Below, one piece after another: positions 7,418 through 22,315 of a stretch of DNA of 64,000 nucleotides. The stretch spans positions 32,106 through 96,105 of the forward strand of contig CAJTTU010000002.1 in assembly GCA_910579325.1 (NCBI GenBank), in the 5' to 3' direction. How positions within the stretch are numbered: position 1 is the stretch's first letter; each line of letters starts with the position of its first letter. Source of the stretch: an uncultured Lachnospiraceae bacterium (lineage in GTDB: Bacteria; Bacillota; Clostridia; Lachnospirales; Lachnospiraceae). Position numbers and translations under genes: made by a program. The notes under the pieces were generated by a model. That model ran no database searches, was not told the origin of the DNA, and was given only the letters and a program-made list of their open reading frames with translations.

Positions 7418-7419
7418 TA

Positions 7420-7720
7420 GAAGGAACCATGGATGAATGCGCCGTCAGGCTGTATTTAACCGAAACCGGGGACGGGAAAAGGACTGTGGGGAATTCTTTT
7501 GATAAATCCGAAAAAATTTGTCACAGACACGTTTTGCCGGATGCGATATAAAAACAAGACGGCATTAGAAGCCGCTTTCGATTGAAGGTGGGTATTGGAT
7601 ATGCCAGGACCTGTGGGAACTCCGGGCGGGAAACCGTGTGGGAGAGGTACCGGGAGCGAAGCGGACAGGGACCAGATGTGCGGGAAATTACGCACAGAGG
7701 AACTGTAAGCAGCATCTGTA
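7420..7720 (+). ncRNA. Candidate structured non-coding RNA in the 3' tail of the TnpB-like gene (omega-RNA-like?)
   Basis: 300 nt with no credible ORF and GC-richer than the surrounding intergenic DNA. It has internal direct repeats (7466-7492 and 7622-7645) and nested hairpins: CAGATG 7673-7678 with CATCTG 7713-7718, and gtgcg 7678-7682 with cgcac 7691-7695. Confidence 0.3.
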
Positions 7721-7778
7721 ATTGATGTCCAAATATGTTTTATTAAATATGACACGGATAAAAGGAGGAACATCAGAG

Positions 7779-9541: not shown

Positions 9542-9573
9542 TTATAGTAAAACCTTAAGAAATAATGTAAAAA

Positions 9574-9606
9574 AACAGGGCGTTTCTGCCACGCCCTGTT
9601 TTTCTC
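9574..9606 (+). terminator. Intrinsic terminator of the surface-protein operon
   Basis: cagggcg (9576-9582) pairs with cgccctg (9592-9598), followed by TTTTTC. Confidence 0.8.
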
Positions 9607-9708
9607 TTTATAGAAAATTGTATTTTCATAATGGAGGATCCGGTAAAAAATATGCTTAAATGTACATCACGCAGGCATATGTTCTGCCGGATGCGGAAAG
9701 GGGCTGTT

Positions 9709-10116
9709 ATGGATAGAAGGCGGGTATTGTTTTTGGCAGCGTCGTTTTTAGGGCTTGTTTGGGCTTTTCCTGCAAATGTGGCTTTGGGAGAAGGGACGGC
9801 AGGCACAAGTGTAAGCGGAGACATAATAACAAAGGAGACGGAACCGTATTCTGTAGATGGATCGGCTGCGGATAAAACAGAAACCGGAGAAATGGAAAAA
9901 TATGAGAACGACAAAAATGAAGTAAAAAACGTAGGAGTGACAAAAACTGAGGGAACGTTAGAAGATAAAGAAACTGTAAAAAATGAAGAAGAACGCAAAA
10001 TTGAAGATCTGGTAATTAACAAAGAAAACGTCAGGATGCGGACGGATATGGGCCGGGATACTGCCATATACCGTGTTTCATTGAGGAAAGTCGGGACGAC
10101 GGAGATAAAGAAGTAG
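9709..10116 (+). CDS. Secreted acidic low-complexity protein, possibly frame-disrupted at its 3' end
   Basis: MDRRRVLFLAASFLGLVWAFPANVALG is signal-peptide-like, followed by E/K/T-rich sequence. The acidic character continues in another frame from 10020 to 10316. Confidence 0.4.
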   Translation: MDRRRVLFLAASFLGLVWAFPANVALGEGTAGTSVSGDIITKETEPYSVDGSAADKTETGEMEKYENDKNEVKNVGVTKTEGTLEDKETVKNEEERKIEDLVINKENVRMRTDMGRDTAIYRVSLRKVGTTEIKK

Positions 10117-10322: not shown

Positions 10323-11582
10323 ATGGACATGAGAAAAGGGCAGAAAAAAGAATGGAAGAGAAAACCATGGCCTCTGACAGTGGAAAACCTGTTTGATGAC
10401 GGCGTAAATTTCTGGTTTACGGAATTCACTTTTAACGGTTTGTTTCAAATGAATAAGAAAAATCGTATTCCTCGGTTCATTGGGGAATTTCCAGGGGAGG
10501 ATTTTTCTCAGGGGAGGCTATACACTTCCATGGTTATGTGTAATGGAAAGCTGTATTTTGCGCCTTTTTTTGCCAGAGAGATTGGCACATATGATTTGAG
10601 AACAGGGGAGTTTGGAAAAATCCCCATTCTTGTTCCTGAGAAAAGGGCAGGCTGGGACTGGAGTCGGGAAAAATTTTTTAAAGTTATGGCATCGGGAAAG
10701 CTGGTTTATTTTTTACCTTGTCATTATCCGGGGATTTTGTGTTATGACACGGAAACCGGCACATTCGACCTGTATGATCAGTGGGTGGATGAAGTGGAAA
10801 GGATGCGGATAAGCGAATGGTGGTATTTTTTTGATTATGAGCTGTCTGGCAGTACCTTATATCTTCCCTGTGGCTGCGCAGACAGTGTGGTTATGATTGA
10901 TATTGTTCAAAAGAAAACACGAATGTTGAAAGTGCCCGGAGGAGATTTTCCCTGTCGATTTTGCGGCATCTCCCAAAACGCAGGGTATTTTTATTTACTT
11001 CGAGGGGATGGGGTCGTGGTAAAACGGCGTTTGGAGACAGAGGAAGAGAATGAGAAGATAATCCGGTTGTCAGCGAAAAATGATGAAGAAGAGCAGGAGA
11101 TCACTTTTTATCCGGTATGCCAGGCAGGAAGATATCTGTATTTTTTCCCTTTTCTGGAAGGAAATTGTTTTCGGTTGGACATGGAGCACTGCAGAGTAGA
11201 GCCTGTAAAGGACTTTGACGATGAACAAAGCTTTGAAGGTTCTTGCTTTTTATTTCTCACGTCTCTTTGGGATGGAGAAACCTTGTATGCGACAGGGGGG
11301 AGAAGCCGTCTGTTTCTGGAGTGCCACCAGAAACAGAGAGAAGTCGTTTCGACTGGTTTGTTTTTGCGGGAGGATGAGCAGAGATTTCTGGAGGACAGAA
11401 AGAGGACGGATTTCCTTTTGCGAAACCGACAAAGGGAGATTTATGAAAATGAATGGGATTCTCTGGGGCTGTTGATGTCTGTGTTTGAGAAAGAAGAAGA
11501 TGCGCAGAATCTTTTTTTAGTGAAAAAATCGGTCACAGAATGTATCACATATGGAGAAGGAATATATCGGATTCTGATTTGA
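10323..11582 (+). CDS. Hypothetical protein with six Kelch-like or beta-propeller-like repeats
   Basis: Six spaced repeats of G..LY(F).P...(I/L).YD..T: GKLYFAPFF, GKLVYFLPC, GSTLYLPCG, AGYFYLLRG, GRYLYFFPF, GETLYATGG. Confidence 0.55.
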   Translation: MDMRKGQKKEWKRKPWPLTVENLFDDGVNFWFTEFTFNGLFQMNKKNRIPRFIGEFPGEDFSQGRLYTSMVMCNGKLYFAPFFAREIGTYDLRTGEFGKIPILVPEKRAGWDWSREKFFKVMASGKLVYFLPCHYPGILCYDTETGTFDLYDQWVDEVERMRISEWWYFFDYELSGSTLYLPCGCADSVVMIDIVQKKTRMLKVPGGDFPCRFCGISQNAGYFYLLRGDGVVVKRRLETEEENEKIIRLSAKNDEEEQEITFYPVCQAGRYLYFFPFLEGNCFRLDMEHCRVEPVKDFDDEQSFEGSCFLFLTSLWDGETLYATGGRSRLFLECHQKQREVVSTGLFLREDEQRFLEDRKRTDFLLRNRQREIYENEWDSLGLLMSVFEKEEDAQNLFLVKKSVTECITYGEGIYRILI

Positions 11583-11691
11583 TAAAAATATAAAAAACTG
11601 TTGCGGGATTTTTGTCACTGTATGACATGAAATAAACGACTTATGTGTTGGGAATGAGAAAGCGCTTTGATGGAATAAGGAGGTCAAGTGG

Positions 11692-14187
11692 ATGGAGCGG
11701 AACTTGTTAATCTCCGGAGATTTCGGACAGTGGAGGATAGAGGATCTGCGATGGGAGCGGGTATTCGACTATTTCTTTTGCGGTGACAGACGGATTTTGT
11801 ATGTTGTCGGTGAAAAGGGTAAGTTGCTGGGAATTATCACTTTAAAAGATTTTTTGGAGAATCCATTTCAGCTGGAAAAAGCGATAAACCGGAATTATTT
11901 TTTTGTGGAGGATGGTCCTGAAAGCAAAGTTCTTGCTCAGGCCAGAGATATCTATAAAAAACGAAAGATTTTGTCAGAGTTGCCTGTTATTGATAGCAGG
12001 CGTCATATGACAGGGTATGTGACATATGTACCCCAATGCCAGGAAGAAGCAGTTCCAAAGGTTCTTCAGGAGGTGAGGGAAAAAATAGAGGCCCTGAAAA
12101 CCAGCTATTATTTAAAAGAGGAGCTGGAGGCTTTTTACCAGATAGAAGATGGAACAGAGATTTTTATCAGGCAGTGTCCTATTGGTCTTGAGTTTGCTTC
12201 ACTTTTTGACGGAAATTTAAAGATGACCTTCCTTTCGGAACAGGAGTATCTGGATTTGATCAAGCGTTTGATGCGGAATGTAAATTGCCGTACGGAACAG
12301 GAAAAAACCTGTTTGCTGTTTGATCTGGATTCGGGAAAGCGACGGGAGCTGTGTCAACGATTTGGACTGGATTTTGTGTATGGACTGGAAACGTTTTTAC
12401 AAGAATTTCTGGAATTGGTGAACAAAGGAGTGTTTTCCATCCTGTTACGGATCACGCAGACAGCGAGATATACTCTGGAGGACTTTATCAGAGATAATGG
12501 TATGGAGGATATATCTTTTGCGACCAACAGGCTGCTGACAGGTTATTTATCCCGGTATATGAGGGAACGCCACATTCCTTTGGATATAAGGGCATCAGAT
12601 TATATTACAGTCATGCAGGTGGGGTGTCTGGTAAACGGAGTCAGGGGATGTCCTATTGATCCTATTGGATTTGAGTATTGCGATATGGTGGAGCAGCAAT
12701 ATTCTTTTATGGAAGAAGCCAAGAAAAAAGGAGTGTCCGTATTTTGCGTCAGCGCCGCTGTTCATGCGAAAACTACGGATACGGAAAAGCAAAGGATACA
12801 AAGGCTGGGCAGACTGGAAAATCTGCTTGCTGAGAAAAATGTGGAGTTTATACAGCAATTATATCAGGATGTATGCGAGGATCAATCACCATTGGAATAT
12901 GCGGAAGAATTGTTCTATCACTTTCCTGTAAGGAGAAGATTTGAGAATGATCTGGTTGTTAATGAGGATTATACCAGTCGTTATGTAAATATAGAAAATG
13001 GGATTCGTAGAACTTGCTATCAGCCGGAGAAATATGGGAATACCATATATTTTATAGGCCCCTGTTTTGCCATGGGTTCTTTTGTGGAAGACCGGCATAC
13101 GATTCCATCTTTGCTTGCGAAGTTGCTCAGGGAGAATGGTTACGCTTACAGAGTAGTAAATTTAGGTGTTTTGGCTTCTAATCAAAGCAAACGGATGATT
13201 CGGTCGCTGGAGTTGGAGAAGGGGGATATTATCATCTGCCTGATGTACAACGAGGGAGGGGGAGAAACGGGGAAGGTAATGGACCCCAGCCCGGCTTTTA
13301 ACCGACTTTGGCCCAGAAAAGATATGTTTTTGGACAAAGGAGTACATTGTAACGCAGAAGGAAATAAAGTTTATGCACAGGCGATTTATGACTACATTTA
13401 TCCGGCATTGAAAAAGAATGTGCCGGTTTTAAAAAAATTTAATATTTATAATGTGTTTAAACCTGATGTTCATGATTTTGGTTTATATGGAGCAAAAGAA
13501 TATTTAGAGATGCTTTTTCACAAAAGGGAAACAGTTCCCCAAAGCGCTAAAGTGATTGGAAGCATTGTGATGAATTGTAACCCTTTTACTTTAGGTCATG
13601 GGCATTTGGTAGAGTATGCCAGAGAAAACTGCGACTATCTTTTTATTTTTGTAGTTCAGGAGGACAAATCCTTTTTCCGGTTTGAGGATCGGTTTGCCAT
13701 AGCAAAGGCTTATTGTAAACAGTATGATGATGTAACGGTATTGCCCAGTGGGAAGATGATTGTTTCCGGCGTATCTTTTCCGGAATATTTTAAACGAGAA
13801 GTGGTACGAGATCAGGAAAGAGAGCATAAGCCTATTATGGTGACGCCGGCGATGGATTTTCGTCTGTTCGCTTATTATATTGCGCCGGCTTTGGGAATTC
13901 AAAAGCGGTTTGTGGCAGAAGAGCCTTTGGATTATGTAACCAGGGAATACAACGAGAGCATGAAACGGGTACTTTCCGCTTTTAATATCCAGGTAGAGGA
14001 AATTCCAAGAAAAGTTCTTCCCAGCGGGGAGATAATCAGTGCTTCCAGGGTGAGAAAATTATATCGAGAGCAGTGTTTTGAAAAGGTGAAAGAGCTGTTG
14101 CCAGATAGTACTTGGGAATATTTGGATGCAAAAGGTTTTTTTTGCGTCGGGAACTACTCCAGAAAAGAAAAATCGAGTTTGCGGTGA
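11692..14187 (+). CDS. Large multidomain protein: N-terminal CBS-like region, central unknown region, C-terminal citrate-lyase-ligase (CitC)-like cytidylyltransferase-fold domain
   Basis: ILYVVGEKGKLLGIITLKDF and ELPVIDSRRHMTGYV are CBS-like. The C-terminal MNCNPFTLGHGHLVEYA...YLFIFVVQEDKSFFRFEDR carries the (T/H)xGH nucleotidyltransferase motif. AAGGAGGT lies 7 nt before the ATG. Confidence 0.65.
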   Translation: MERNLLISGDFGQWRIEDLRWERVFDYFFCGDRRILYVVGEKGKLLGIITLKDFLENPFQLEKAINRNYFFVEDGPESKVLAQARDIYKKRKILSELPVIDSRRHMTGYVTYVPQCQEEAVPKVLQEVREKIEALKTSYYLKEELEAFYQIEDGTEIFIRQCPIGLEFASLFDGNLKMTFLSEQEYLDLIKRLMRNVNCRTEQEKTCLLFDLDSGKRRELCQRFGLDFVYGLETFLQEFLELVNKGVFSILLRITQTARYTLEDFIRDNGMEDISFATNRLLTGYLSRYMRERHIPLDIRASDYITVMQVGCLVNGVRGCPIDPIGFEYCDMVEQQYSFMEEAKKKGVSVFCVSAAVHAKTTDTEKQRIQRLGRLENLLAEKNVEFIQQLYQDVCEDQSPLEYAEELFYHFPVRRRFENDLVVNEDYTSRYVNIENGIRRTCYQPEKYGNTIYFIGPCFAMGSFVEDRHTIPSLLAKLLRENGYAYRVVNLGVLASNQSKRMIRSLELEKGDIIICLMYNEGGGETGKVMDPSPAFNRLWPRKDMFLDKGVHCNAEGNKVYAQAIYDYIYPALKKNVPVLKKFNIYNVFKPDVHDFGLYGAKEYLEMLFHKRETVPQSAKVIGSIVMNCNPFTLGHGHLVEYARENCDYLFIFVVQEDKSFFRFEDRFAIAKAYCKQYDDVTVLPSGKMIVSGVSFPEYFKREVVRDQEREHKPIMVTPAMDFRLFAYYIAPALGIQKRFVAEEPLDYVTREYNESMKRVLSAFNIQVEEIPRKVLPSGEIISASRVRKLYREQCFEKVKELLPDSTWEYLDAKGFFCVGNYSRKEKSSLR

Positions 14188-14202
14188 AAGGGTAAAAAGG
14201 GA

Positions 14203-15717
14203 ATGTCAAATATGGAATATATTATCGTCCAGGCAGGCGGCAAAGGAACCCGGCTGCAATATCTTACGAAAAATAAACCAAAGGCGCTTGTTCCGGTGGA
14301 AAACCTGCCGATGTTATTTCACTTGTTTCAAAAATATCCGGACAAGCGTTTTATTATCATAGCGGATTACCATAAAGAGGTTTTACATGAGTATCTGGCT
14401 GCCTTTGCGAAGGTCAAATACAGGATTGTTGATGCTCAGGGGACAGGGACCTGCGCTGGGGTGCGTCAGGCGGTAAGCCTGATTCCGGAAGGGCAGGCCT
14501 TTATGTTGATCTGGTCAGATCTGATTCTGCCGGACAGTTTTATGCTGCCCGACGAATATGGAGCCGATAATGGTTCAGCGAATAATTATATAGGAATCTC
14601 AAAAACTTTTCCATGCAGATGGAGTTATTGTGACGGTCTGTTTACGGAGGAACGATCCAGCGAACATGGCGTGGCGGGTTTCTTTTTGTTTTCCGATAAA
14701 AGTATATTGACGGATGTACCGGAGAGCGGAGAGCTGGTACGCTGGATGCAGCAGAAATCTTTTCGCTTTAAAGAGATCAGCCTTGCCGGAACAAAAGAAT
14801 TTGGCCTGTTGGAAGAATATCAGAAACTGGCACGTGAAAAATGCCGCCCTTTTAACCGGATTACTTTTGAGGGCGACTATTTGATTAAAGAACCGGTGGA
14901 TGATCAGGGAGAAAAGCTTGCGACGAAGGAACAGGCGTGGTATGAGAAGGCCGTCCGGAATAAAGTGGATATCATTCCAAAAATATATGAGAAATCCCCG
15001 TTAAAAATGGAGCGGATATCCGGAAAAAATATATATGAGTACCAGCTGTCATATAAAGAAAAAGCCGAGATTCTTGAAAAGCTGGTCGCTGCGCTGCGTC
15101 ATCTGCATCAATCTGACAGTATAGAAGCTGACGCTTTCAGCATGCGGGAGGCTTATTTTAATAAGACAATGGACAGGCTGTCGCGGATAGAGGATCTGGT
15201 GCCTTTCGCCCGGGAGCGGGAGATTGTGATTAATGGGAAGAAGTGCAAAAACGTTTATTTTCTTAAACGTAAGCTGGAAAAAATGCTGCAGCGGCTTTCC
15301 TGTGACAGGTTTTCTTTTATTCACGGGGACTGTACCTTTTCAAATTTAATGCTGAGGGATAACGGTGAGCCGGTATTGATTGACCCAAGGGGATATTTTG
15401 GGTATACGGACTTTTATGGGGACGTCCGGTATGACTGGGCGAAACTGTACTACTCAATCGTGGGCAATTATGACCGTTTTAATCTGAAACAGTTTAAATT
15501 GGAAATTGGTGAGAATGGTGTTTTTTTGGAAATACAGTCCAATGGCTGGGAGGATATGGAGGATGAGTTTTTCCGTCTTACCAGAGCGGAACCGGAAGAG
15601 ATCAGACTGATTCATGCGGTAATCTGGTTATCCCTGACGACTTATGCCTGGCAGGATTATGACTCCATATGCGGGGCGTTTTATAACGGGCTGTATTATC
15701 TGGAGGATCTGTGGTGA
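14203..15717 (+). CDS. Bifunctional nucleotidyltransferase / kinase (LicC-LicA-like architecture)
   Basis: The N-terminus IVQAGGKGTRLQYLTKNKPKALVPV matches the NTP-transferase G-x-G-t-R-l motif. The C-terminus FIHGDCTFSNLML...LIDPRGYFG matches the choline/aminoglycoside-kinase catalytic loop. Confidence 0.7.
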   Translation: MSNMEYIIVQAGGKGTRLQYLTKNKPKALVPVENLPMLFHLFQKYPDKRFIIIADYHKEVLHEYLAAFAKVKYRIVDAQGTGTCAGVRQAVSLIPEGQAFMLIWSDLILPDSFMLPDEYGADNGSANNYIGISKTFPCRWSYCDGLFTEERSSEHGVAGFFLFSDKSILTDVPESGELVRWMQQKSFRFKEISLAGTKEFGLLEEYQKLAREKCRPFNRITFEGDYLIKEPVDDQGEKLATKEQAWYEKAVRNKVDIIPKIYEKSPLKMERISGKNIYEYQLSYKEKAEILEKLVAALRHLHQSDSIEADAFSMREAYFNKTMDRLSRIEDLVPFAREREIVINGKKCKNVYFLKRKLEKMLQRLSCDRFSFIHGDCTFSNLMLRDNGEPVLIDPRGYFGYTDFYGDVRYDWAKLYYSIVGNYDRFNLKQFKLEIGENGVFLEIQSNGWEDMEDEFFRLTRAEPEEIRLIHAVIWLSLTTYAWQDYDSICGAFYNGLYYLEDLW

Positions 15718-15791
15718 TAAAGGATAAATTTGGAGAGTGGTTTTTTAATATATTTATATGACATGGCGGATACGCCAAGAAAGGGGAAAGC

Positions 15792-16388
15792 ATGCTGGCC
15801 TATTTTGAGGAGCAGATGAAAGAACTGGACAAATCCATACATTCCATAGATGAGCCTATGTTTCGGAAAATGTTGGACAAAGCGGTGGAGACTTTAGACG
15901 CAGGTCACAAAATCATAGTTTCGGGTCTGGGAAAGAATGTCCCGATCTGTGAGAAATTCGTTGGCTCAATGGTATCCATGGGGCTGGACGCTTATTTTTT
16001 ACATACCAATTCGGCGGTGCATGGCGATATGGGGCTGGTAAAAGACGGGGACATGGTAATCATCCTGACAAAGAGCGGCGAGACCTCGGAGTCTATTTAT
16101 CTGGCCAGGTTGTTGAGGGAAAGAGATATCCATATGTGGCTGTTGACGTTCTGCGGGCAGAGCACGTTGGCCAGGGAAATCCCGGACAGCATTATATTAG
16201 ATTTGAGCCATGAGGGAGATCCGTGGAATATCATGCCGAATAATTCCACAACGATGAACTTGATTGTGCTGCAGGGCCTGGCCATGATGATAGCGAGGAA
16301 GAAGGACTTGAGAATTGAGGATTTTAAAAGAAATCATCCGGGCGGGCATATTGGTGAGATTTTAAACAATAATGAGCGGGAACATTGA
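15792..16388 (+). CDS. SIS-domain sugar-phosphate isomerase (KpsF/GutQ-like SIS domain without CBS pair)
   Basis: IIVSGLGKNVPICEKFVGSMVSMGLDAYFLHTNSAVHGDMGLVKDGDMVIILTKSGETSE. Confidence 0.75.
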   Translation: MLAYFEEQMKELDKSIHSIDEPMFRKMLDKAVETLDAGHKIIVSGLGKNVPICEKFVGSMVSMGLDAYFLHTNSAVHGDMGLVKDGDMVIILTKSGETSESIYLARLLRERDIHMWLLTFCGQSTLAREIPDSIILDLSHEGDPWNIMPNNSTTMNLIVLQGLAMMIARKKDLRIEDFKRNHPGGHIGEILNNNEREH

Positions 16389-16443
16389 GGGGATTAAATT
16401 AAATCCTGAATAAAAAAGGAATCATGAGACATGGAGCAGGGTA

Positions 16444-16938
16444 ATGGGAAAACCGGGTATACGAATCGCGAGAGGCATGATTTACTGGTATCAATTGAGA
16501 TTGTTATTGCGAATCAACTATAAGAAAAGTGTTCTGGTTCTCGCCGGGGAGAGTGAGGAGCTGGATGACTGCTGTATTCTTCATCTTGGAGATTTTATGA
16601 GGAGGAAACATGTAGACGGCGCTATTATTATTTATGCGTCTGACAGGGAGATCCGTGTAAACCGGGAGAATGGCATGGAGAGGATACGGAAGTACAGAAT
16701 ATCAAAGTATCGGATGAGATTATTGTATGATGCGTATTGTTTCTATAAATTTTATGATAATATCGTTTTTACTTATACGGACACACCTGAGGATAACCTT
16801 TTGGGCAGGTATTTAAGAGAAACAAAGGTGAACACGGAGGATGCGGCGTGCCTTGCGCTTTATCATTTACGCCGCGTGCCGAAGCGAGAAACAGTTCAGG
16901 AGAAACAGATATGTATGACGCGGAACTCCGTAAAGTAA
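16444..16938 (+). CDS. Hypothetical protein, first gene of duplicated module 1
   Basis: The ORF overlaps the next gene by 28 nt. It has weak colinear similarity to 20325-20699 (LLYDAYCFYKFYD vs KKLYFMYEFSG). Confidence 0.4.
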   Translation: MGKPGIRIARGMIYWYQLRLLLRINYKKSVLVLAGESEELDDCCILHLGDFMRRKHVDGAIIIYASDREIRVNRENGMERIRKYRISKYRMRLLYDAYCFYKFYDNIVFTYTDTPEDNLLGRYLRETKVNTEDAACLALYHLRRVPKRETVQEKQICMTRNSVK

Positions 16939-18212
16939 CGAGAAAGCTGAGATTTCGTAATGCCCTTGGAACGCTGAGAAAAAAAACAGTGTATCTGTTC
17001 GGTGTAAGTGACAATACCAGGCAGGTAATTCAAATCCTGCGCGAATTAGGCATGGAGCCATGTAACGTAATCGATAATGACAGGACAAAGCAAAACAGCT
17101 ATTGCGCGAGACTGAGGGTTATTTCATTGGACGAGGCGGATTCGCCGGGAGCGTCGGAGAAAATCTATATGATATATTCGACATACTGGCGAGAAATGCT
17201 TCCGCAGTTAATGAAATACGGAGTGAAAAGACGGAATATATGGAAATTAAATCCCGCTCAGGATTGTCTGCCGGAATTATTGCTCAAAGCATATAGAGGG
17301 AAACGCTACAGAGAGCGTTTACGTAAAAAATATGGTGATATACCTGTTTTTCTGTGCCCATATACAGGCAGTGGGGATATTTACCTGATCGGAACCTTTT
17401 GGGACGAGTATATAAGGCGTAACCATATTGAGGATTATGTGTTCGTGGTGATAACAGGGGCGTGTAAAAAAGTGGCTTCGTTATTTGACATTAAAAATGT
17501 GGAGTTAGTAAAGAAAAAAGAATACGCACAGTATTTGATCGACTACTATCTGTACGATCCGGAAAAAGGAAAGATTAAGCTGCTTAATGATTGCTGGGCG
17601 CAGGTTCACACGAACCAGACGGAATGGTTCAGGGGATATAAAGGATTATATTTTACGGAATTGTTCAGAAGGTTTGTTTTTGATTTGCCGGACGATGTAA
17701 GGCCGCGGCATCCCGCCTATAAGGACGAGTCGGAGTGCGTGAGGGAGCTTTTTAACAAATATGGCCTGCCGCCGGGAAAGACAATTATTATATCGCCATA
17801 TTCGAATACGCTGTCAGATCTTCCGGAATGGTTTTGGGAGGGATTGGTTGAAAAGCTTTCGAGGAAAGGATATTGTGTCGGGACGAACAGCGGCGGGAAG
17901 ACGGAGCCGGCCATTGCCGGGAGCAAAGAAATATTTTTCCCATTAGACATCGCCCCACAGTTTATTGAGCGAGCGGGAGGGTTTATAGGGGTTCGGAGCG
18001 GGCTGTGCGATGTGATCAGCGGGACTTCCGCCAGGAAGGTAATATTATATGACGCCAGGAACAGGTTTTATATGGGAAGTGCGTATGAGTATTTCAGTTT
18101 AAGGCGGATGGGATTGTGTGAGGATGTGGAGGAAATAGAATACGCAGATATTGATATGGGGAACGTTATAGACAGAATACTGCGAATATTTATTGATCAG
18201 GAAGATATATGA
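16911..18212 (+). CDS. Putative GT-B/GT9-like glycosyltransferase, paralog 1
   Basis: AGGAGA lies 6 nt before the ATG at 16911. N-terminal Rossmann-like VYLFGVSDNTRQVIQIL...VIDND. The C-terminal ERAGGFIGVRSGLCDVISGTSARKVILY resembles the heptosyltransferase-type IG.DSG..H motif region. Confidence 0.55.
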   Translation: MYDAELRKVTRKLRFRNALGTLRKKTVYLFGVSDNTRQVIQILRELGMEPCNVIDNDRTKQNSYCARLRVISLDEADSPGASEKIYMIYSTYWREMLPQLMKYGVKRRNIWKLNPAQDCLPELLLKAYRGKRYRERLRKKYGDIPVFLCPYTGSGDIYLIGTFWDEYIRRNHIEDYVFVVITGACKKVASLFDIKNVELVKKKEYAQYLIDYYLYDPEKGKIKLLNDCWAQVHTNQTEWFRGYKGLYFTELFRRFVFDLPDDVRPRHPAYKDESECVRELFNKYGLPPGKTIIISPYSNTLSDLPEWFWEGLVEKLSRKGYCVGTNSGGKTEPAIAGSKEIFFPLDIAPQFIERAGGFIGVRSGLCDVISGTSARKVILYDARNRFYMGSAYEYFSLRRMGLCEDVEEIEYADIDMGNVIDRILRIFIDQEDI

Positions 18213-18244
18213 AATAAACAATTCAAACAGCGAGAGGTTATATT

Positions 18245-19453
18245 ATGACAACGACAATTAAAAGAAATAAACATTGGATCAATCGTCTGCCTCATATTTA
18301 TGAGTTGGATGATTTGCTGGATTTTTGTGGAAAACATGAGCGTATATATATATACGGAAGAGGTGAGGAACAGGAATATCTTTTAAAATTTCTTGATATG
18401 TGCGGCGTAAGAACGGAAGGCTATGTGGTTTCCTGTTCCCCGTGTGAGGAGAATTTTTATTACAGGAAGATACCGGTAAAACTGGCCGAGGACGTAACAG
18501 GAACGCCGGGCGTCGGGATTATCCTGGCCCTTCCGGACAGATATTATGACGAGATTATTCCCATGTTTCGGAAATTAAATTTCCAGAACTGGATCTCATT
18601 GACAGAGCACAGCAGGCTGGGAATCGCGGAGCAGATGGCCCCCAGGAAAAAGTCCGAGATGGCTTTTGAGATCAGCCTGGCCGACCATTGTAATCTCTCC
18701 TGTCAGATGTGTGACCATTTCTCCCAATTGTCAGAGGAATGGCTTGTGGATTTGGGTCAGCTGAAACGGGATGTGGAGCGTATGGGCGAATTGTTTGATC
18801 ATGAGATTGGCGCGATCACGTTATTGGGCGGGGAGCCGACACTGCATCCTGATTTATTGGAAATTATTCGATATACAAGAAAACAGTTCCCTCATACGGA
18901 ATTGATTCTGCTCACCAATGGGGTTCTGTTGGAGAAGCTTGAGAAGTCACCCAAAGGTAATTTGTGGGAAGTGATGAAAGAGAATGACACGCATGTAACG
19001 GTCACGGTGTATCCGTTGAGGCTTGATTACGCCAAAATGGAGGAAATGGCGAAGAAGTATGGCGTGATGTTAAAAATGTCGTCGGATATTCACGCAGTGG
19101 AAGCGACGAAAGTAACAAAGATCTCAGATAAGCACACAATGGATCTGAGCGGACAGGTACCAAAGGGACACTGCGTTCACTGTCTTTATTTTAATAAATT
19201 TAATGTGGTTAAGGATGGGAAATATTATATGTGCCCGATCCAGGCGCATATCAATATTTTTAACAGCCGCTTTAATAAAGAACTCGCTTATGTGGAGGGC
19301 GACTATTTGGATATCTATCAGGTAAAAAGCTGGGAGGAGTTCGCGGAATTCAGTTCCTGGTGGGTACCGTTTTGCCGCTACTGCGATCAAAAGAACTGGG
19401 GGCCTCACAGCCAATGGAAGCCGAGTAACAAAGAGTTAAGCGAGTATGTGTAA
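18245..19453 (+). CDS. Radical SAM enzyme with an N-terminal Rossmann-like extension
   Basis: ADHCNLSCQMCDHF is the CxxxCxxC motif. Further Cys residues near the C-terminus (HCVHC, MCP, FCRYC) suggest an auxiliary cluster. Confidence 0.75.
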   Translation: MTTTIKRNKHWINRLPHIYELDDLLDFCGKHERIYIYGRGEEQEYLLKFLDMCGVRTEGYVVSCSPCEENFYYRKIPVKLAEDVTGTPGVGIILALPDRYYDEIIPMFRKLNFQNWISLTEHSRLGIAEQMAPRKKSEMAFEISLADHCNLSCQMCDHFSQLSEEWLVDLGQLKRDVERMGELFDHEIGAITLLGGEPTLHPDLLEIIRYTRKQFPHTELILLTNGVLLEKLEKSPKGNLWEVMKENDTHVTVTVYPLRLDYAKMEEMAKKYGVMLKMSSDIHAVEATKVTKISDKHTMDLSGQVPKGHCVHCLYFNKFNVVKDGKYYMCPIQAHINIFNSRFNKELAYVEGDYLDIYQVKSWEEFAEFSSWWVPFCRYCDQKNWGPHSQWKPSNKELSEYV

Positions 19454-19466
19454 ACGGGGCGGGAAG

Positions 19467-20273
19467 ATGATAGGAGCAGTATCGATTGATAAAGACATGA
19501 ATGTCCCCATGATCGGGCTAGGAACCTTTGACCTGAAAGCGGAAGAGATTCTGGCGGGGATACAGGTGGGATACAGGCTGCTGGACACGGCCTGGCAATA
19601 TGGGAATGAAGCGGAAGTAGGGAAGGCAGTAAAAGAAAGCGGCGTTAAACGAGAGGAAATCATTATAACAACCAAGCTGTGGACGGATGATATACGGAAG
19701 CGCCGCGTAAGAGAGGCGTGTGAGGAAAGTCTCAGAGCGTTTCGGATGGATTACGTGGATTTGTATTTAATTCACTGGCCGGCGGAAGGATTTGAGTATG
19801 CGTGGGAAATCATGACGCAGTTAAAAGAAGAAGGGAAAATCAGGGCGGTGGGAGTGAGCAATTTTCAGGAACATCATTTGAAGGCGCTGGAGCGGGTTTC
19901 CGCAACGAGACCAGTACTGAATCAGATAGAGTGCCATCCGTATTTCCGGAATGAGGGATTGATCGCGTATTGCCGGGAATATGATATCGCGGCGCAGGCC
20001 TGGTGTCCCTTAGGAGGAAGTTACAGCCAGTTAGTGAACGATCATCGTTTGAGACCTCTGGCGGAAAAGCACCGGAAGGCATCGGCTCAGATCGTTCTGA
20101 GATGGCATCTGCAAAAGAATGTGTTAATCATTCCAAGAACGTCAAATCGGCAGCATCTTGTGTCTAATCAGGATATTTTTGATTTCTGGCTGGACAATCA
20201 TGATATGGAAGTGATTGACAGCATGGATACCGGACGCAGAATCGGAGCGGATCCGGACAGCTTTGATTTTTAA
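19467..20273 (+). CDS. Aldo/keto reductase
   Basis: PMIGLGTF...GYRLLDTAWQYGNEAEVG...IIITTKLW...DLYLIHWP...GVSNF are classic AKR motifs. Confidence 0.85.
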   Translation: MIGAVSIDKDMNVPMIGLGTFDLKAEEILAGIQVGYRLLDTAWQYGNEAEVGKAVKESGVKREEIIITTKLWTDDIRKRRVREACEESLRAFRMDYVDLYLIHWPAEGFEYAWEIMTQLKEEGKIRAVGVSNFQEHHLKALERVSATRPVLNQIECHPYFRNEGLIAYCREYDIAAQAWCPLGGSYSQLVNDHRLRPLAEKHRKASAQIVLRWHLQKNVLIIPRTSNRQHLVSNQDIFDFWLDNHDMEVIDSMDTGRRIGADPDSFDF

Positions 20274-20324
20274 ACGGCCGAGAATATAAAGGAAATATAT
20301 GGAAAAAGGATATCTTGCGCGCGA

Positions 20325-20699
20325 ATGAATAAACTGAATGAATTAATATTGCGATTGGAGAAGAATCTGAAACAATATGATAAAATATTATTGTTTGTTG
20401 CTGTAGATAAATTCCATTTGTTTTTAAAACATTGCGTTTCGGTTTTAAATGGAAATAGGGGGAAATCGATATTGGTGATATCCTCGGTCAGTTTGGATAA
20501 GGATGAACGAAAACTGCCATTTGCCTATAACCAGATGTCTGTTCAGGAAATAACACAGTTGAAAAAATTGTATTTTATGTACGAATTCTCAGGACGGTTT
20601 CAGATGATTGATAAAAATGACGGATTTGGAGATTTGTCGAATTATGTAGACACAAATCTGTTGAGTGACGAAGAGCTTTTCTTGACGATATTTCACTGA
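20325..20699 (+). CDS. Hypothetical protein, first gene of duplicated module 2
   Basis: Same position relative to GT-like paralog 2 as 16444-16938 has to paralog 1, with weak colinear similarity. Confidence 0.45.
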   Translation: MNKLNELILRLEKNLKQYDKILLFVAVDKFHLFLKHCVSVLNGNRGKSILVISSVSLDKDERKLPFAYNQMSVQEITQLKKLYFMYEFSGRFQMIDKNDGFGDLSNYVDTNLLSDEELFLTIFH

Positions 20700-20714
20700 G
20701 TAAAAATAGAAATT

Positions 20715-21953
20715 ATGGACCAATTACATTACAACGAAATGCTTTCCAATCTGACCCTTCTGACGCAGACAGCAGGTATTCGCGAAAAACGTTTTTATCT
20801 TTTTGGTCACTGCAACGCCACGGAAGCACTGGCGGATATTTTACTGGATCAGAAGTGTACCGTTTCCGGCATTCTGGATAATAATCCGGCTAAATATGAT
20901 ACGCGATACCGGGGTATTCCGGTAAAAGAACCGGAAACAGTTTTATCAGAGCGGACGGAGGATATTCTGATCTGCACTGTCGCGAGGGCTTACGCCGCGA
21001 TGGCGGATCAGTTAAAACGTCTGGGTTATGAAGGCGGATTGTATAAGCTGGTAGATTATAACAGCTATGCGGAATATTCTCTCTCTGAAGAAACCCGGCT
21101 CCGCATGAGCGTCCGGGTGGAACGGGGGATGGAGCTGCTGGAAAGCCTGTCCGGGAAATATCCGGGATGCTTCCGATTTTTGTGTCCGTTTTCGGCGTTG
21201 GGCGATATTTATTATATGATGTCGTATCTGCCTTATTTTATGAATAAAAGAGGCATAAAAAAATGCGTGATTGGCGTGATCGGCGCTGCCTGCGCTCAGA
21301 CGGTTGGGTTATTTGGCGGATATCCGGTGGAAGTATTTTCACAGAAAGATATGGATGAGACGATACAGGCGGCTTTATATACGCAGGACCGGCATACGTT
21401 CATTCCGCATCAGGACAGACCTTACGTGGTAAATCTGCATCGGGCTCTTTATGTAAAAAGAATCCCGCTGGAGAAGATTTACTGCTGTGGGGTATTCGGG
21501 CTTCCGGCGGATACCAGGCCGGTCAGCCCGGTATGGTTTCAGGCGTATCCGGAGCTGGAGCGGATCAGGCCGGGGAAGTCTGTGATTCTTGCGCCATACG
21601 CGAAGTCTGTTACGGCGCTGTGTCCTGAGATATGGAAACGGATTACGGAATATTATCTGGAAAAGGGATACACATGCTTTACGAATGTGGCATGCGGTGA
21701 GCTGCCTTTGCCGGATACTCAGCCGGTCAGCCCCCGGATAGCGGAAGTGAGATCAGTGGTGGAGCGGGCGGGAACATTTGTAGGGCTGCGCAGTGGTTTG
21801 TGTGATGTTTTGCGGACGGCCTGTGGAAAAAAGACGGCATTGTATCCGGATTACTATTATAGTGACACAAGATGGAAAGCGGTCGATATGTACCGGCTGG
21901 AAGACTGGGATAATATTGTGGTAAAGGATGATTTCACATGGGAGAAAAAATAA
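20715..21953 (+). CDS. Putative GT-B/GT9-like glycosyltransferase, paralog 2
   Basis: FYLFGHCNATEALADIL...ILDNN and ERAGTFVGLRSGLCDVLRTACGKKTALY are colinear with 16911-18212. Confidence 0.55.
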   Translation: MDQLHYNEMLSNLTLLTQTAGIREKRFYLFGHCNATEALADILLDQKCTVSGILDNNPAKYDTRYRGIPVKEPETVLSERTEDILICTVARAYAAMADQLKRLGYEGGLYKLVDYNSYAEYSLSEETRLRMSVRVERGMELLESLSGKYPGCFRFLCPFSALGDIYYMMSYLPYFMNKRGIKKCVIGVIGAACAQTVGLFGGYPVEVFSQKDMDETIQAALYTQDRHTFIPHQDRPYVVNLHRALYVKRIPLEKIYCCGVFGLPADTRPVSPVWFQAYPELERIRPGKSVILAPYAKSVTALCPEIWKRITEYYLEKGYTCFTNVACGELPLPDTQPVSPRIAEVRSVVERAGTFVGLRSGLCDVLRTACGKKTALYPDYYYSDTRWKAVDMYRLEDWDNIVVKDDFTWEKK

Positions 21954-22315
21954 TTGTGTCTGCGCTTCCGAAAACATGGATTTTGGATTTGGACGGAACA
22001 ATCGTAAAACATAATGGATATAAAGATGATGGGACGGATACGTTTTTGGACGGGGCGGAAGAATTTCTGTCAGGCATCGCAAAAGAGGACATGATCGTGT
22101 TTTTGACATCCCGGACGGACAGGGAGAAGGAGCTGACGGAGGCTTTTCTGGACGCGCATCATATCCGGTATGACGCAGTTATTTATAATGCGCCATATGG
22201 AGAGAGGATTCTGATCAATGACAAAAAACCTTCCGGACTGCGGACAGCGATTGCGGTTAACACGCAGAGGGATGTGTTTTTGGAGGAGATTTTTGAAGTG
22301 GAAGGAGATTTGTAA
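21938..22315 (+). CDS. Small HAD-superfamily phosphatase
   Basis: WILDLDGTIV is the DxDxT motif. Also VFLTSR and INDKKPSG. The start overlaps the upstream gene. Confidence 0.65.
   Translation: MGEKIIVSALPKTWILDLDGTIVKHNGYKDDGTDTFLDGAEEFLSGIAKEDMIVFLTSRTDREKELTEAFLDAHHIRYDAVIYNAPYGERILINDKKPSGLRTAIAVNTQRDVFLEEIFEVEGDL

Follow-up and report, generated by a model that had tools for sequence, protein, structure and literature searches.

A Lachnospiraceae operon of uncharacterised sugar-activating enzymes and GT9-like transferases, most likely decorating a surface component

Within a 64,000-nucleotide stretch of DNA from an uncultured Lachnospiraceae bacterium (hereafter, the window) lies an operon of gut Clostridia whose enzymes, themselves uncharacterised and arranged on the logic of the nucleotide-heptose pathways, most likely produce an unusual activated sugar in the cytoplasm and link it to a component of the cell surface. 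In a more specific version, to which we give slightly less than even credence, a small glycan would be built and tailored without lipid carrier, flippase or polymerase, the sugar would derive from a pentose route, and the acceptor would be a secreted protein of 373 aa whose gene belongs to the operon's head.

Layout and limits of the operon

The segment at 10323-22315 contains eleven ORFs in the window's ORF list, all on the + strand and spaced by -28 to +109 bp (Table 1). Its GC content (0.39-0.46, versus 0.51-0.56 outside) marks a variable low-GC island, adjoined by toxin-antitoxin and TnpB-like genes. The first-pass annotation had described these 12 kb as a co-directional cluster with short gaps or overlaps, and had named a six-bladed propeller-like protein, a CBS and CitC-like fusion, a LicC-like nucleotidyltransferase fused to an APH-fold kinase, a KpsF-type SIS isomerase lacking its CBS pair, a radical SAM enzyme, an aldo/keto reductase (AKR), a small HAD phosphatase and two GT9-like paralogs, each preceded by a small protein. 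The arrangement and the domain calls were reproduced. The segment is not, however, a complete unit, as its transcription begins upstream of 10323, either at about 7779 or past the terminator at 9571-9603. The operon thus most likely spans about 7779-22315; three exported proteins form its head, and 10323-22315 is its cytoplasmic enzyme part.

A hydropathy check detected no membrane-span-like segment in any of the eleven proteins, and no flippase or polymerase is encoded among the genes of the segment, in agreement with the earlier reading. Nor did homology searches place the set in an already characterised pathway, the case that the earlier reading had named as counting against it: with none of the eleven proteins was a curated cut-off reached for any characterised enzyme of CDP-ribitol, CDP-choline or GDP/ADP-heptose synthesis.

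Table 1. Features of the operon and its upstream region (window coordinates)
Feature	Position	Strand	Remarks
TnpB-like protein, 436 aa	6107..7417	+	RuvC catalytic residues 0/3; syntenic partner of operon
Conserved non-coding element	7418..7778	+	Downstream of TnpB-like gene
173-aa protein	7779..8300	+	One N-terminal membrane anchor; first gene of operon
373-aa secreted protein	8420..9541	+	Ends conserved; middle hypervariable and Thr/Ser/Ala-rich
Strong bidirectional terminator-like hairpin	9571..9603	.	Directly 3' of 373-aa gene
Remnant of gene for 375-aa secreted acidic protein	9631..10116	+	463-bp deletion at 10082/10083
419-aa soluble repeat protein	10323..11582	+	Propeller-like; before CitC-like gene in most loci holding the latter
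831-aa CBS/CitC-like protein	11692..14187	+	CBS pair ~18-130; CitC-type HIGH-nucleotidyltransferase domain 622-811
NT-K fusion, 504 aa	14203..15717	+	N-terminal sugar-1-phosphate-type nucleotidyltransferase, C-terminal APH-fold kinase
SIS isomerase, 198 aa	15792..16388	+	Single domain; KpsF/GutQ (arabinose-5-phosphate isomerase) type
164-aa small partner of 433-aa transferase	16444..16938	+	Homologous to 124-aa partner
GT9-like transferase paralog 1, 433 aa	16911..18212	+	N-terminal Rossmann-like C2185-like_N domain
Radical SAM enzyme, 402 aa	18245..19453	+	PF04055 and Fer4_12; CNLSCQMC motif
Aldo/keto reductase, 268 aa	19467..20273	+	PF00248 (Aldo_ket_red), E 6.7e-50
124-aa small partner of 412-aa transferase	20325..20699	+	Directly 5' of 412-type gene in 40/77 loci
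GT9-like transferase paralog 2, 412 aa	20715..21953	+	Most conserved gene of the set
Cap-less HAD phosphatase, 125 aa	21938..22315	+	16-bp overlap with transferase gene

Sugar activation and the predicted pathway

The SIS protein is best matched by the KpsF/GutQ model TIGR00393 (E 1.9e-30); KpsF, KdsD and GutQ models match it whereas GmhA does not, and a domain search found no CBS pair. Its closest relatives (E 4e-21 to 7e-17) are KdsD/GutQ/KpsF and the single-domain arabinose-5-phosphate isomerases (APIs) of Escherichia coli CFT073 (c3406, 5uqi) and Bacteroides fragilis (3etn), the best solved relatives being 5uqi, 3etn and 2xhz. Like c3406 and the B. fragilis form, it consists of one SIS domain and keeps the catalytic positions, with GxGK, HGD, SGE, E and HPGG conserved in alignments. 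Unlike Kdo-linked APIs, it has no KdsA or KdsB in the window and is partnered instead with the nucleotidyltransferase-kinase (NT-K) fusion.

NT-K matches NTP_transferase at residues 8-111 and APH at 269-419, contains HGDxxxxN and IDP motifs, and is 51-73% identical to its counterparts in 72 loci; weaker matches include MurU, LicC and ribulosamine kinase, and HddC for the nucleotidyltransferase domain. In AmgK/MurU and LicA/LicC, too, an activated compound results from the joint action of an APH-fold kinase and an NTP_transferase-fold enzyme; NahK and MtnK are further APH-fold sugar kinases paired with nucleotidyltransferases, and the fructosamine/ribulosamine kinases are likewise among the closest known enzymes. 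Unlike AmgK/MurU and LicA/LicC, the window fusion has the nucleotidyltransferase first and is tied to a sugar-phosphate isomerase, which implies that the substrate is already phosphorylated and the intermediate a bisphosphate, in contrast to pathways that salvage free sugar or choline. NT-K and KpsF-type SIS genes are neighbours in 30 of 33 and 35 of 40 loci in two locus sets, and locus L126 fuses them in one 712-aa ORF followed by a HAD gene; the order NT-K, SIS, HAD recurs in more distant loci.

We propose that the isomerase would convert a ketose phosphate to an aldose phosphate, most likely ribulose-5-P to D-arabinose-5-P, that the kinase half of NT-K would phosphorylate the anomeric hydroxyl to give a sugar 1,omega-bisphosphate, and that the nucleotidyltransferase half would yield the NDP-sugar. 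The HAD protein would remove the distal phosphate, either before activation or after transfer. Within the cell, the two GT9-like transferases, each with its small partner, would pass the sugar to the acceptor; the radical SAM enzyme and AKR may tailor a sugar by radical oxidation or dehydration and then reduction, and the 831-aa protein may add an ATP-activated carboxylate such as acetate. The ribulose-5-P/arabinose-5-P pair is favoured by the KpsF-type active site, by RPE-like genes (34 of 80 loci; directly 5' of NT-K in four) and by occasional KdsA-like genes (L019, L027, L123).

Transferases, phosphatase and recurrent cassettes

The 412- and 433-aa proteins are paralogs (26% identity, E 5e-30), and their small partners are homologous (hhalign probability 96%, E 1e-9). 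Neither transferase matches a Pfam or NCBIfam model; PF22674 is recorded on orthologs of the 433-aa protein. In a fold search with the 412-aa protein as modelled by AlphaFold (pLDDT 87), GT9 structures scored best, with TibC (4rap) first (E 3.6e-5) and 3tov, WaaC and WaaF also retrieved. The 412-aa protein is accordingly predicted to have a GT9 fold, a membership that rests on this fold and on an invariant ALGD motif at the start of the catalytic part, with no GT9 sequence model matching. Further differences from GT9 enzymes are the extra N-terminal Rossmann-like domain and the separate small partner, which in relatives of ~600 aa is fused to the N-terminus of the GT9-like protein. In P0395, small partner, GT9-like domain and GmhB domain (170 bits; cut-off 149.6) form one polypeptide, which also weakly matches the Aah/TibC model. 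P0395 adjoins GmhA, NT-K and KpsF-type SIS genes in L144, and L030 and L058 have GmhA or GmhB genes next to their 412-type gene.

The small HAD protein carries a DLDGT motif and has only weak HAD matches (HAD-IIIB/IIIC, PNK-phosphatase). Its gene adjoins the 412-type gene in 63 of 75 loci, tracking the transferase and not the kinase, and in L058 it occurs alongside a true GmhB; both its GmhB-like role and its step are therefore uncertain. The first-pass annotation had recognised in the isomerase, kinase, phosphatase and nucleotidyltransferase the logic of nucleotide-heptose synthesis. The NT-K/SIS adjacency and the L126 and P0395 fusions bear out that overall scheme, with support also from the fusion of a GT9-like relative to a genuine GmhB adjoining GmhA, but not the equation of the small HAD with GmhB.

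The nucleotide-heptose pathways (GmhA; HldE or HddA plus HddC; GmhB) with their GT9 enzymes (WaaC/WaaF; TibC/Aah) comprise the same activities, all cytoplasmic. As in HldE, kinase and nucleotidyltransferase are fused; TibC is a cytoplasmic heptosyltransferase that modifies protein; and the GT9-like family is tied to real GmhA and GmhB genes. The window set departs from these pathways in its KpsF-type isomerase and APH-fold kinase, as the earlier reading had noted (the kinase fold is neither PfkB nor GHMP), in a HAD protein that is cap-less and only 125 aa long, unlike GmhB, in the missed cut-offs and in its Gram-positive host. As in that reading, the target of decoration would be an existing polymer or protein.

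The same logic could run on a heptose, an alternative that we consider unlikely but credible. The KpsF-type SIS protein would then act on sedoheptulose-7-P (S7P), and the GT9-like transferases would draw on NDP-heptose, by analogy with LPS-core or TibC/Aah heptosylation. The heptosyltransferase fold matches, the P0395 fusion beside GmhA and the weak HddC match speak for it. The window isomerase, however, resembles KpsF/KdsD/GutQ and keeps the API catalytic positions, GmhA is absent from the window, and RPE and KdsA neighbours suggest pentose phosphates. GmhA and a KpsF-type SIS coexist in L030 and L144; they would be redundant if both used S7P, which argues for different substrates. Canonical heptose genes occur in 4 of 144 loci, so that heptose stays a candidate sugar.

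Of the GT9-like loci, 37 are flanked by 9 kb or more on each side; 17 of these contain NT-K, 10 the radical SAM gene, 6 the AKR gene, 5 the gene for the 419-aa protein and 3 that for the 831-aa protein. About half of GT9-like loci have no NT-K/SIS genes within 10 kb. Co-conservation of the whole 12 kb, on which the first-pass annotation had staked its proposal, was thus not found; the segment is instead four recurrent cassettes: repeat protein with CBS/CitC-like ligase; NT-K with KpsF-type isomerase; small partner with GT9-like transferase and radical SAM enzyme, with or without the AKR; and small partner with GT9-like transferase and small HAD phosphatase.

A teichoic-acid-like decoration with alditol phosphate is less probable again. 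Isomerase and AKR would then make arabinitol-5-P or ribitol-5-P, the nucleotidyltransferase would form the CDP-alditol, the GT-B-like proteins would be alditol-phosphate transferases acting on a cell-wall polymer, and the HAD would trim the terminal phosphate. Many related loci do have RPE, IspD-like and Zn-ADH genes right 3' of the 412-type gene and HAD, a trio that by eye is TarI/TarJ-like; LicD-type fusions occur in related islands, and a Dlt-like MBOAT/AMP-ligase/carrier set near the L093 genes would fit a cell-wall polymer as target. In the window, however, there is no IspD, and exporter and membrane transferase are absent. The AKR gene travels with the radical SAM cassette and not with the SIS gene, the NT-fused kinase is left without a role, and the NT-K-SIS and GmhB fusions fit a sugar-1-phosphate route better.

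The radical SAM protein reaches no curated radical SAM subfamily. The N-termini of this enzyme and the 412-aa protein are similar (E 1e-3); the domain is of the type found in the 433-aa transferase, with which the enzyme is paired in other loci too. The AKR scores 250 bits against the DkgA model (cut-off 425).

In the 831-aa protein, the C-terminus gives a full-length match over ~190 residues to the Citrate_ly_lig C-terminal domain (PF08218, E 2.4e-55), of PPAT/NMNAT/PanC-like fold, whereas the whole protein scores 172.9 against the CitC cut-off of 262.1. HIGH_NTase1 is matched weakly by 12 of 20 family members. The citrate lyase ligase CitC and the tRNA acetate ligase TmcAL, a HIGH_NTase1 member, are both ATP-dependent acetate activators. 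In contrast to CitC systems, the window has no GNAT domain in this protein and no citrate lyase, and the protein carries the CBS pair and two further domains; residues ~450-575 are flavodoxin-like with an invariant Cys458, the middle part is without assignment, and a weak SGNH hint (TesA, E 0.046) is what a possible acyl-transfer role rests on.

Profile self-comparison of the 419-aa protein gave five significant shifts of ~48 residues, equivalent to 6-7 repeats, which would fit a propeller and are compatible with the six blades first proposed; domain-family searches returned no match. In L010, L091, L092 and L093 the CitC-like gene is directly preceded by an ortholog, which in L010 is split into two fragments. 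Unannotated 406- and 435-aa genes take this position in L095 and L096, and the position differs in L094.

The exported head and a candidate acceptor

The exported proteins and TnpB-like gene upstream, the best clue to the acceptor, had been missed by the first reading. The 173-aa protein (Kyte-Doolittle peak 3.41, residues 10-25) has counterparts of 73-76% identity in L010 and L092. The 373-aa protein has a Sec-type signal peptide with terminal residues AFAA, and belongs to a family of 116 clusters, all of them named as Lachnospiraceae, for which neither Pfam nor the PDB offers a relative; it is syntenic with CitC-like and GT genes in six loci. The hairpin behind its gene has a stem of 13-15 bp and T runs on both strands; genes for abundant structural subunits typically end in such a strong terminator. 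The deletion in the following gene was revealed by blastn against the near-identical contig L001, where the gene is intact (7498-8625).

In the window, L010, L092, L094, L095 and L096 the head keeps one order: the anchored 170-aa protein comes first, then the secreted protein of ~360 aa, in most cases a gene of the 375-like or 419-like kind or both, and finally the CitC-like gene. The downstream transferase set differs each time. This conservation makes the 373-aa protein the leading acceptor candidate, most likely modified before export. In none of the 80 genome loci does the 412-type gene have a homolog of the 373-aa protein within 10 kb, so the acceptor may differ or be encoded elsewhere.

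It is improbable that the product is a soluble small molecule (a glycoside, compatible solute or natural product), formed by a GT-B synthase and HAD in the manner of OtsA/OtsB and then tailored by the radical SAM enzyme and AKR. The overlapping, tightly coupled transferase and phosphatase genes and the solubility of all proteins would suit it, and radical SAM and reductase pairs are known in aminoglycoside pathways. Exporter, regulator and resistance genes are absent, however, a secreted structural protein is syntenic in six loci, and the prevailing enzymes of related islands (GT2, GT4, LicD, pyruvyl-transferase and DUF115) are typical of surface glycans. A role in anti-phage defence, for instance through a viperin-like radical SAM enzyme assisted by proteins that modify nucleotides, is already disfavoured and highly improbable: the low-GC setting beside toxin-antitoxin and TnpB-like genes and a partial pVip match might suggest it, but that match covers the generic cluster-binding core only (residues 144-231, ~80 of 257 profile positions), the other proteins match none of the PADLOC models, and the neighbours are sugar enzymes.

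Before the operon stand the TnpB-like gene, without nuclease residues, and the conserved non-coding element. Cas12f1-like_TNB is the only domain matched by the protein, which Cas12f models also match; its alignment shows an intact zinc finger and no Asp/Glu/Asp at the RuvC positions, and orthologs of 35-54% identity occupy the same position in L010, L092, L094, L096, L083 and L046. The element's blocks CGGCATTAGAAG, GCCAGGACC and GGGAGCGAAGC persist between loci even where protein identity has fallen to ~50%, and RNAalifold, on only four sequences, gave 37 pairs, 13 with compensatory changes. TldRs are TnpB-like, nuclease-dead, RNA-guided repressors with fliC-, csrA- and oppF-associated clades (10.1101/2023.11.30.569447, 10.64898/2026.09.22.753285). 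The window protein resembles them in lacking the RuvC triad while keeping the zinc finger, and in being syntenic over diverged loci and followed by a conserved structured non-coding element; unlike those three clades, it is tied to a surface-protein/glycosylation operon. The protein is thus a candidate TldR-like regulator and the element a candidate guide-RNA scaffold; a search for guide and target identified none.

Homologs of the 412-aa transferase fall into 959 clusters at 90% identity and 3,600 at 50%; for the catalytic domain of this GT9-like family, with its about 3,600 clusters, no model exists, and the 80 genome loci of the 412-type gene are labelled almost all as Lachnospiraceae or related Clostridia genera. 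Unlike known protein glycosylation islands next to their structural substrate (flagellin, pilin, serine-rich adhesins, TibA/TibC), the operon has a candidate substrate that carries a Sec-type signal peptide and represents a new family, and no accessory secretion system was seen. Like them, it sets an exported structural gene, conserved with a variable middle, beside soluble transferases and a sugar-activation set that vary from locus to locus.

Organization and domain content of the cluster

The locus is a variant nucleotide-sugar and glycosyltransferase island, assembled from non-orthologous parts together with a large uncharacterised GT9-fold family, whose substrates we infer. Its core consists of the eleven co-directional + strand ORFs described in the first-pass annotation (10323-22315, separated by gaps of -28 to +109 bp), and the domain assignments made there were reproduced by profile searches against Pfam and NCBIfam. 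The operon begins upstream of this core, with three more genes on the same strand (see table). The surrounding island is low in GC (0.39-0.46 between ~4 and 24 kb, versus 0.51-0.56 elsewhere), and none of the eleven proteins has a membrane-span-like segment.

A homology check for an already characterised pathway found that none of the eleven proteins attains the curated cut-off of a characterised enzyme. Those of 419, 164, 433, 124 and 412 aa have no Pfam or NCBIfam match even at E 10, and a literature search returned no description of this cluster in the library covered. Within the 419-aa protein, profile self-comparison detected five significant shifts of ~48 residues, and thus 6-7 repeats, a predicted pattern that fits a propeller. 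Defence and phage origins were unsupported by model searches: the match of the radical SAM protein to prokaryotic viperin (pVip) spans positions 5-83 of 257 only, and PADLOC models gave no meaningful match for the other cluster proteins.

Features located upstream of the cluster and elsewhere in the window
Feature	Position	Strand	Remarks
TnpB-like protein gene	6107-7417		TNB and Cas12f matches
Conserved non-coding element	7418-7778		blocks kept across TnpB-like loci; predicted structure partly covarying
Membrane-anchored protein, 173 aa	7779-8300	+	
Protein with signal peptide, 373 aa	8420-9541	+	
Terminator-like hairpin	9571-9603		strong, bidirectional; directly after the 373-aa gene
Remnant of 375-aa secreted acidic protein	9631-10116	+	161-aa ORF; 463-bp deletion relative to L001
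Bacterial large SRP RNA	59365-59626	+	above Rfam gathering score; unrelated to the cluster
FMN riboswitch	63761-63875	-	above Rfam gathering score; unrelated to the cluster

The third upstream gene is truncated in the window, where 463 bp present in L001 (one of the related genome and metagenome loci fetched for comparison, here given L-numbers; L001 7929-8391) are missing at 10082/10083; the two contigs are otherwise 100% identical. In L001, for its part, 61 bp of the small HAD phosphatase gene are duplicated (~20413-20501; window 22104-22131), which shortens the protein to 98 aa; the operon is thus damaged in both of these near-identical strains, but in different genes. Downstream of the cluster, two overlapping short ORFs with weak AAA_35/AAA_14 matches (22532-23186) resemble fragments of an AAA-ATPase_like plus PDDEXK_9 gene, which several related islands (L014, L022, L046, L095) possess in intact form; they are probably a decayed mobile-element gene at the end of the island. 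The GC minimum (0.39) falls at 4200-6000, in the region that separates feoB from the TnpB-like gene; the equivalent stretch of L001 encodes small Uma2- and ParE-like proteins.

A proposed nucleotide-sugar route and its probable sugar

Profile search confirmed that the 198-aa isomerase is a KpsF-type SIS protein without the CBS pair. It matched SIS (PF01380, E 1e-13), its best models were KpsF/GutQ/KdsD, and it scored 106.3 bits against TIGR00393 (cut-off 203.7) over model positions 2-153 of 268. This is the architecture of single-domain arabinose-5-phosphate isomerases, and its closest solved relatives are arabinose-5-phosphate isomerases: c3406 (5uqi, E 4e-21), a B. fragilis protein (3etn) and KdsD (2xhz). 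The catalytic positions GxGK, HGD, SGE, a later Glu and HPGG are kept in the alignments to all three, and the GmhA model (TIGR00441/SIS_2) gave no match.

The 504-aa fusion combines an NTP_transferase domain (residues 8-111) with an APH-fold kinase (269-419; PF01636, E 2.8e-9). Neither HldE nor an HddA plus HddC pair was recognized in it: HldE and HddA kinases belong to the PfkB or GHMP families, whereas this kinase has the APH fold, and the HddC model reached 33.5 bits versus a required 300. The sole match in a profile search with the kinase domain was the catalytic loop of a ribulosamine kinase. The 125-aa phosphatase is a minimal cap-less HAD with DLDGT (DxDxT motif), encoded by a gene that overlaps the 412-aa transferase gene by 16 bp; it matched neither the GmhB model (TIGR00213) nor the HAD-IIIA histidinol-phosphatase-type domain, and HAD-IIIC alone was detected (E 1.8e-3). 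Compared to the canonical heptose pathway, each step in the window uses another fold or subfamily.

The logic of isomerase, kinase, phosphatase and nucleotidyltransferase that the first-pass annotation had recognized, here feeding GT9-fold transferases, is supported by fusions and gene neighbourhoods at other loci. A single 712-aa ORF in L126 (9998-12497) unites NTP_transferase, APH and SIS, with the small HAD gene immediately after it; GT2 genes and the gene for a membrane Acyl_transf_3 protein lie close by. An 814-aa relative in L144, P0395, joins the small partner protein, the GT9-like body and a GmhB domain that passes its curated cut-off (TIGR00213, 170 bits versus 149.6); its GT9-like part has a weak sequence match to the Aah/TibC model. 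In L144 (88-7018), P0395 is followed by GmhA (189 aa; 203.6 bits, just below the 209.45 cut-off), GT2, a small protein, the nucleotidyltransferase-kinase and a KpsF-type SIS. By sequence, the route would run from a ketose-phosphate to an aldose-phosphate, a bisphosphate, a sugar-1-phosphate and an NDP-sugar, and from there to the GT9-fold transferases. The substrate of the small HAD could be the bisphosphate or a sugar-5-phosphate that has already been transferred; in L058, the small HAD is present alongside a real GmhB.

With moderate confidence, we favour a pentose: ribulose-5-phosphate to arabinose-5-phosphate, arabinose-1,5-bisphosphate and NDP-D-arabinose. This preference is based on the alignment of the isomerase to arabinose-5-phosphate isomerases, on the missing GmhA match and on the genes found nearby. 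An RPE-like gene occurs in 34 of the 80 loci surveyed and lies directly upstream of the nucleotidyltransferase-kinase gene in four metagenome loci, and KdsA-like genes are present in L019, L027 and L123; RPE supplies ribulose-5-phosphate and KdsA consumes arabinose-5-phosphate. The main rival is that the sugar is a heptose. It draws on a few loci in which canonical GmhA or GmhB genes lie beside GT9-like genes or are fused to them: L144, L030 (5422-5979) and L058 (8389-9476), where they neighbour a 412-type gene in the latter two. Yet in L030 and L144 GmhA coexists with a KpsF-type SIS, which would be redundant if both used sedoheptulose-7-phosphate and thus favours different substrates for the two, a further point for the pentose. 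KdsC-like, NeuA-like and HMGL-like plus DUF115 genes were assigned by eye in L040, L044 and L078; these, or the KdsA-like genes, hint at ulosonic-acid (Kdo-like) sugars in Gram-positive Lachnospiraceae.

The remaining enzymes may serve in tailoring. The 402-aa protein belongs to the radical SAM superfamily (CNLSCQMC, a CxxxCxxC motif; PF04055, E 2.2e-11); it matched the generic core and attained none of the curated subfamilies (best 46 bits versus cut-offs of at least 170). The 268-aa protein matches Aldo/keto reductase over its full length (PF00248, E 6.7e-50), with Asp/Tyr/Lys/His positions visible by eye, and is generic DkgA-like (DkgA 250 bits versus 425), missing the equivalog cut-offs of both DkgA and DkgB. 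Where a locus contains both genes, they are in most cases neighbours. Radical SAM dehydratases and dehydrogenases paired with reductases are known from AprD4/AprD3 and BtrN, and by analogy the radical SAM enzyme would oxidise or dehydrate the sugar and the reductase would then reduce it.

The 831-aa protein (model pLDDT 83) has four parts: a CBS pair detected by profile (E 4e-7), a middle region, a flavodoxin-like segment at ~450-575 with an invariant Cys458 in 'GPC', and a CitC-type HIGH-nucleotidyltransferase at the C-terminus (PF08218, E 2.4e-55, positions 1-182 of 182). PF08218 is matched by all 20 family members considered. A fold search with the model returned matches (PPAT, NMNAT, PanC) for this C-terminal domain only. 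The full CitC architecture is not present: TIGR00124 scored 172.9 bits versus 262.1 over model positions 132-328, and GNAT is absent. An SGNH assignment was considered for the flavodoxin-like segment, where the single match was a weak one to TesA (E 0.046), and 0/20 family members matched a Pfam lipase. CitC and TmcAL both use ATP to activate acetate; from this analogy we propose, with low confidence, that the 831-aa protein carries out ATP-dependent acylation of the glycan or its acceptor.

GT9-fold transferases and recurrent cassettes

In the AlphaFold model of the 412-aa protein, built from 36 sequences (pLDDT 87), a Rossmann-like domain at the N-terminus precedes a predicted GT-B body. Among solved structures, the best Foldseek matches to this body were all GT9 enzymes, namely TibC (4rap, E 3.6e-5, probability 1.0), a Veillonella GT9 (3tov), WaaC (2h1f) and WaaF (1psw), with TM-scores on target of 0.39-0.49. 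By sequence, the Pfam GT9 model Glyco_transf_9 matched neither the 412-aa nor the 433-aa protein even at E 10, and a profile of the 412-aa family did not find GT9 chains in the PDB. G163 and D164 in 'CPFSALGD' are invariant across the family alignment, and the 433-aa paralog carries 'TGSGD'; in WaaC, an N-terminal Gly-Asp motif holds the catalytic Asp, onto which 'ALGD' may map. The family is large, with 959 clusters when homologs are grouped at 90% identity and 3,600 when they are grouped at 50% (E up to 1e-3).

The pair of transferases, each preceded by a small protein, proved to be a duplicated two-gene unit, because the transferases are paralogs (26% identical) and the 164-aa and 124-aa partners are homologous (hhalign probability 96%, E 1e-9). 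In ~600-aa relatives the small protein is fused to the transferase N-terminus, which makes it a subunit or domain of the transferase.

At the N-terminus of the 412-aa protein lies a domain similar to Rex and to the N-terminal part of a UDP-quinovosamine dehydrogenase (3nkl, E 1e-4), and the radical SAM enzyme begins with a similar one. Precomputed annotation of homologs names this domain C2185-like_N (PF22674). A local Pfam scan of the window proteins did not reproduce PF22674; the assignment for these proteins derives from the precomputed marks on homologs and from the 3nkl- and Rex-like matches. In many related islands (L011-L096), C2185-like_N is fused to otherwise unrelated glycan enzymes: GT2, GT4, GT9-like, radical SAM, LicD, DUF115/MptE-like, pyruvyl transferase, NKWYS, AP_endonuc_2, GDSL lipase and CitC-like proteins. 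Such a distribution points to a handle, carrier or assembly platform that these enzymes have in common.

An identical 831-aa protein is encoded on six metagenome contigs, with the gene order of the window wherever they overlap; the two compared base by base are ~100% identical to it. For wider comparison, we fetched 80 loci in a scan anchored on the 412-aa family and searched them with the window proteins by tblastn. Nearly all are labelled Lachnospiraceae or related Clostridia, including strain 10-1, Sporofaciens musculi (four loci), Schaedlerella, Butyrivibrio, Oribacterium, and Acetatifactor, Dorea and Hungatella MAGs. Of 75 loci, 63 have the small HAD gene directly 3' of the 412-type gene; the gene of the 124-aa partner lies 5' of it in 40 of 77, and SIS comes next after the nucleotidyltransferase-kinase gene in 30 of 33. 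The radical SAM gene co-travels with the genes of the 433-type transferase and its 164-aa partner, often together with the aldo/keto reductase. Where the sequence extends 9 kb or more to each side (37 loci), 17 loci contain the nucleotidyltransferase-kinase, 10 the radical SAM, 6 the reductase, 5 the 419-aa and 3 the 831-aa gene.

A reverse scan of metagenomes, anchored on the nucleotidyltransferase-kinase, found SIS directly after it in 35 of 40 loci; remoter homologs (53-58% identity) show the order nucleotidyltransferase-kinase, SIS, HAD. Thirteen of these loci were fully flanked, and they include HAD in 11 cases and a GT9-like gene in 10. This partial co-occurrence in both scans does not bear out the expectation that the 12 kb are conserved as one block, and indicates instead four recurrent cassettes joined in this genome.

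Operon head, candidate acceptor and a putative TnpB-like regulator

The operon head runs from the anchored protein through a ~360-aa secreted protein, in most cases with a 375-like and/or 419-like gene after it, to a CitC-like protein. It is kept in L010, L092, L094, L095 and L096 at 41-76% identity, and each locus then continues with its own set of soluble transferases (GT2, GT4, GT32-like, DUF4422, WbsX, carbamoyltransferase or RgpF), many of which carry C2185-like_N. The hairpin behind the 373-aa gene suggests high expression of this gene with read-through into the enzyme genes, a pattern typical of an abundant structural subunit followed by accessory genes. The 373-aa family (116 clusters, Lachnospiraceae names only) is conserved at both ends and hypervariable in its Thr/Ser/Ala-rich middle, without a relative in Pfam or, by sequence or profile, in the PDB. 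A TasA-like identity, an impression gained by eye, was unconfirmed.

Flagellin, pilin and TibA/TibC arrangements similarly place an exported structural protein beside a variable soluble glycosylation set. From this synteny and the TibC-like fold of the transferase, the 373-aa protein is by analogy the leading acceptor candidate. Two observations count against it: a 373-aa homolog occurs within 10 kb of a GT9-like gene in 0 of 80 genome loci, and a Dlt-like set (MBOAT, AMP-binding ligase and a 73-aa carrier-like protein) just downstream of the related island in L093 (15008-19324) would fit a cell-wall polymer as target. A flagellin island was rejected, as a flagellin gene lies within 10 kb in only 1 of 80 loci, plus L095. 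Of the earlier interpretation, then, the pathway logic is supported, and the co-conservation, the extent of the operon and the likely acceptor need correction.

Upstream of the head, the TnpB-like gene is syntenic in seven loci, with orthologs at 34-55% identity. They precede the operon head in L010, L092, L094 and L096, and the nucleotidyltransferase-kinase gene directly in L046 (Sporofaciens musculi) and at a greater distance in L083. The RuvC triad is replaced in 5/5 aligned orthologs and the zinc finger is intact. With the triad lost, TnpB homology kept outside a transposon and a conserved structured element downstream, the sequence of this region looks like that of a TldR-type RNA-guided regulator, i.e., a nuclease-dead TnpB-like repressor. 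No guide target was found in the window, the four Sporofaciens loci or all fetched loci. Three TldR clades have been named, associated with fliC, csrA/flagellin and oppF, and association with a glycosylation island is not among them (10.1101/2023.11.30.569447, 10.64898/2026.09.22.753285).

The most far-reaching reading, which we consider improbable as a whole, would join these elements: an unknown soluble Lachnospiraceae route to nucleotide-activated D-arabinose (arabinose-5-phosphate via the 1,5-bisphosphate) and a large new GT9-fold branch, recruited by a common N-terminal Rossmann-like domain, would glycosylate a new surface-fibre protein in the cytoplasm, with a new clade of nuclease-dead, RNA-guided TnpB repressors controlling how the variable glycan islands are expressed.

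Among gut commensals, Lachnospiraceae are dominant; surface antigens of theirs, flagellins for example, shape host immunity, yet their surface glycans are almost unknown. In this locus, the nucleotide-sugar bisphosphate pathway takes a non-orthologous form, from which a new sugar donor could emerge. The locus also brings to light a large transferase family, so far uncharacterised (~3,600 clusters at 50% identity), whose catalytic part matches no curated model, and whole islands of soluble glycan enzymes marked by one common N-terminal domain. It offers a concrete, testable acceptor candidate, and RNA-guided TnpB-derived regulators may extend to the control of surface glycosylation.
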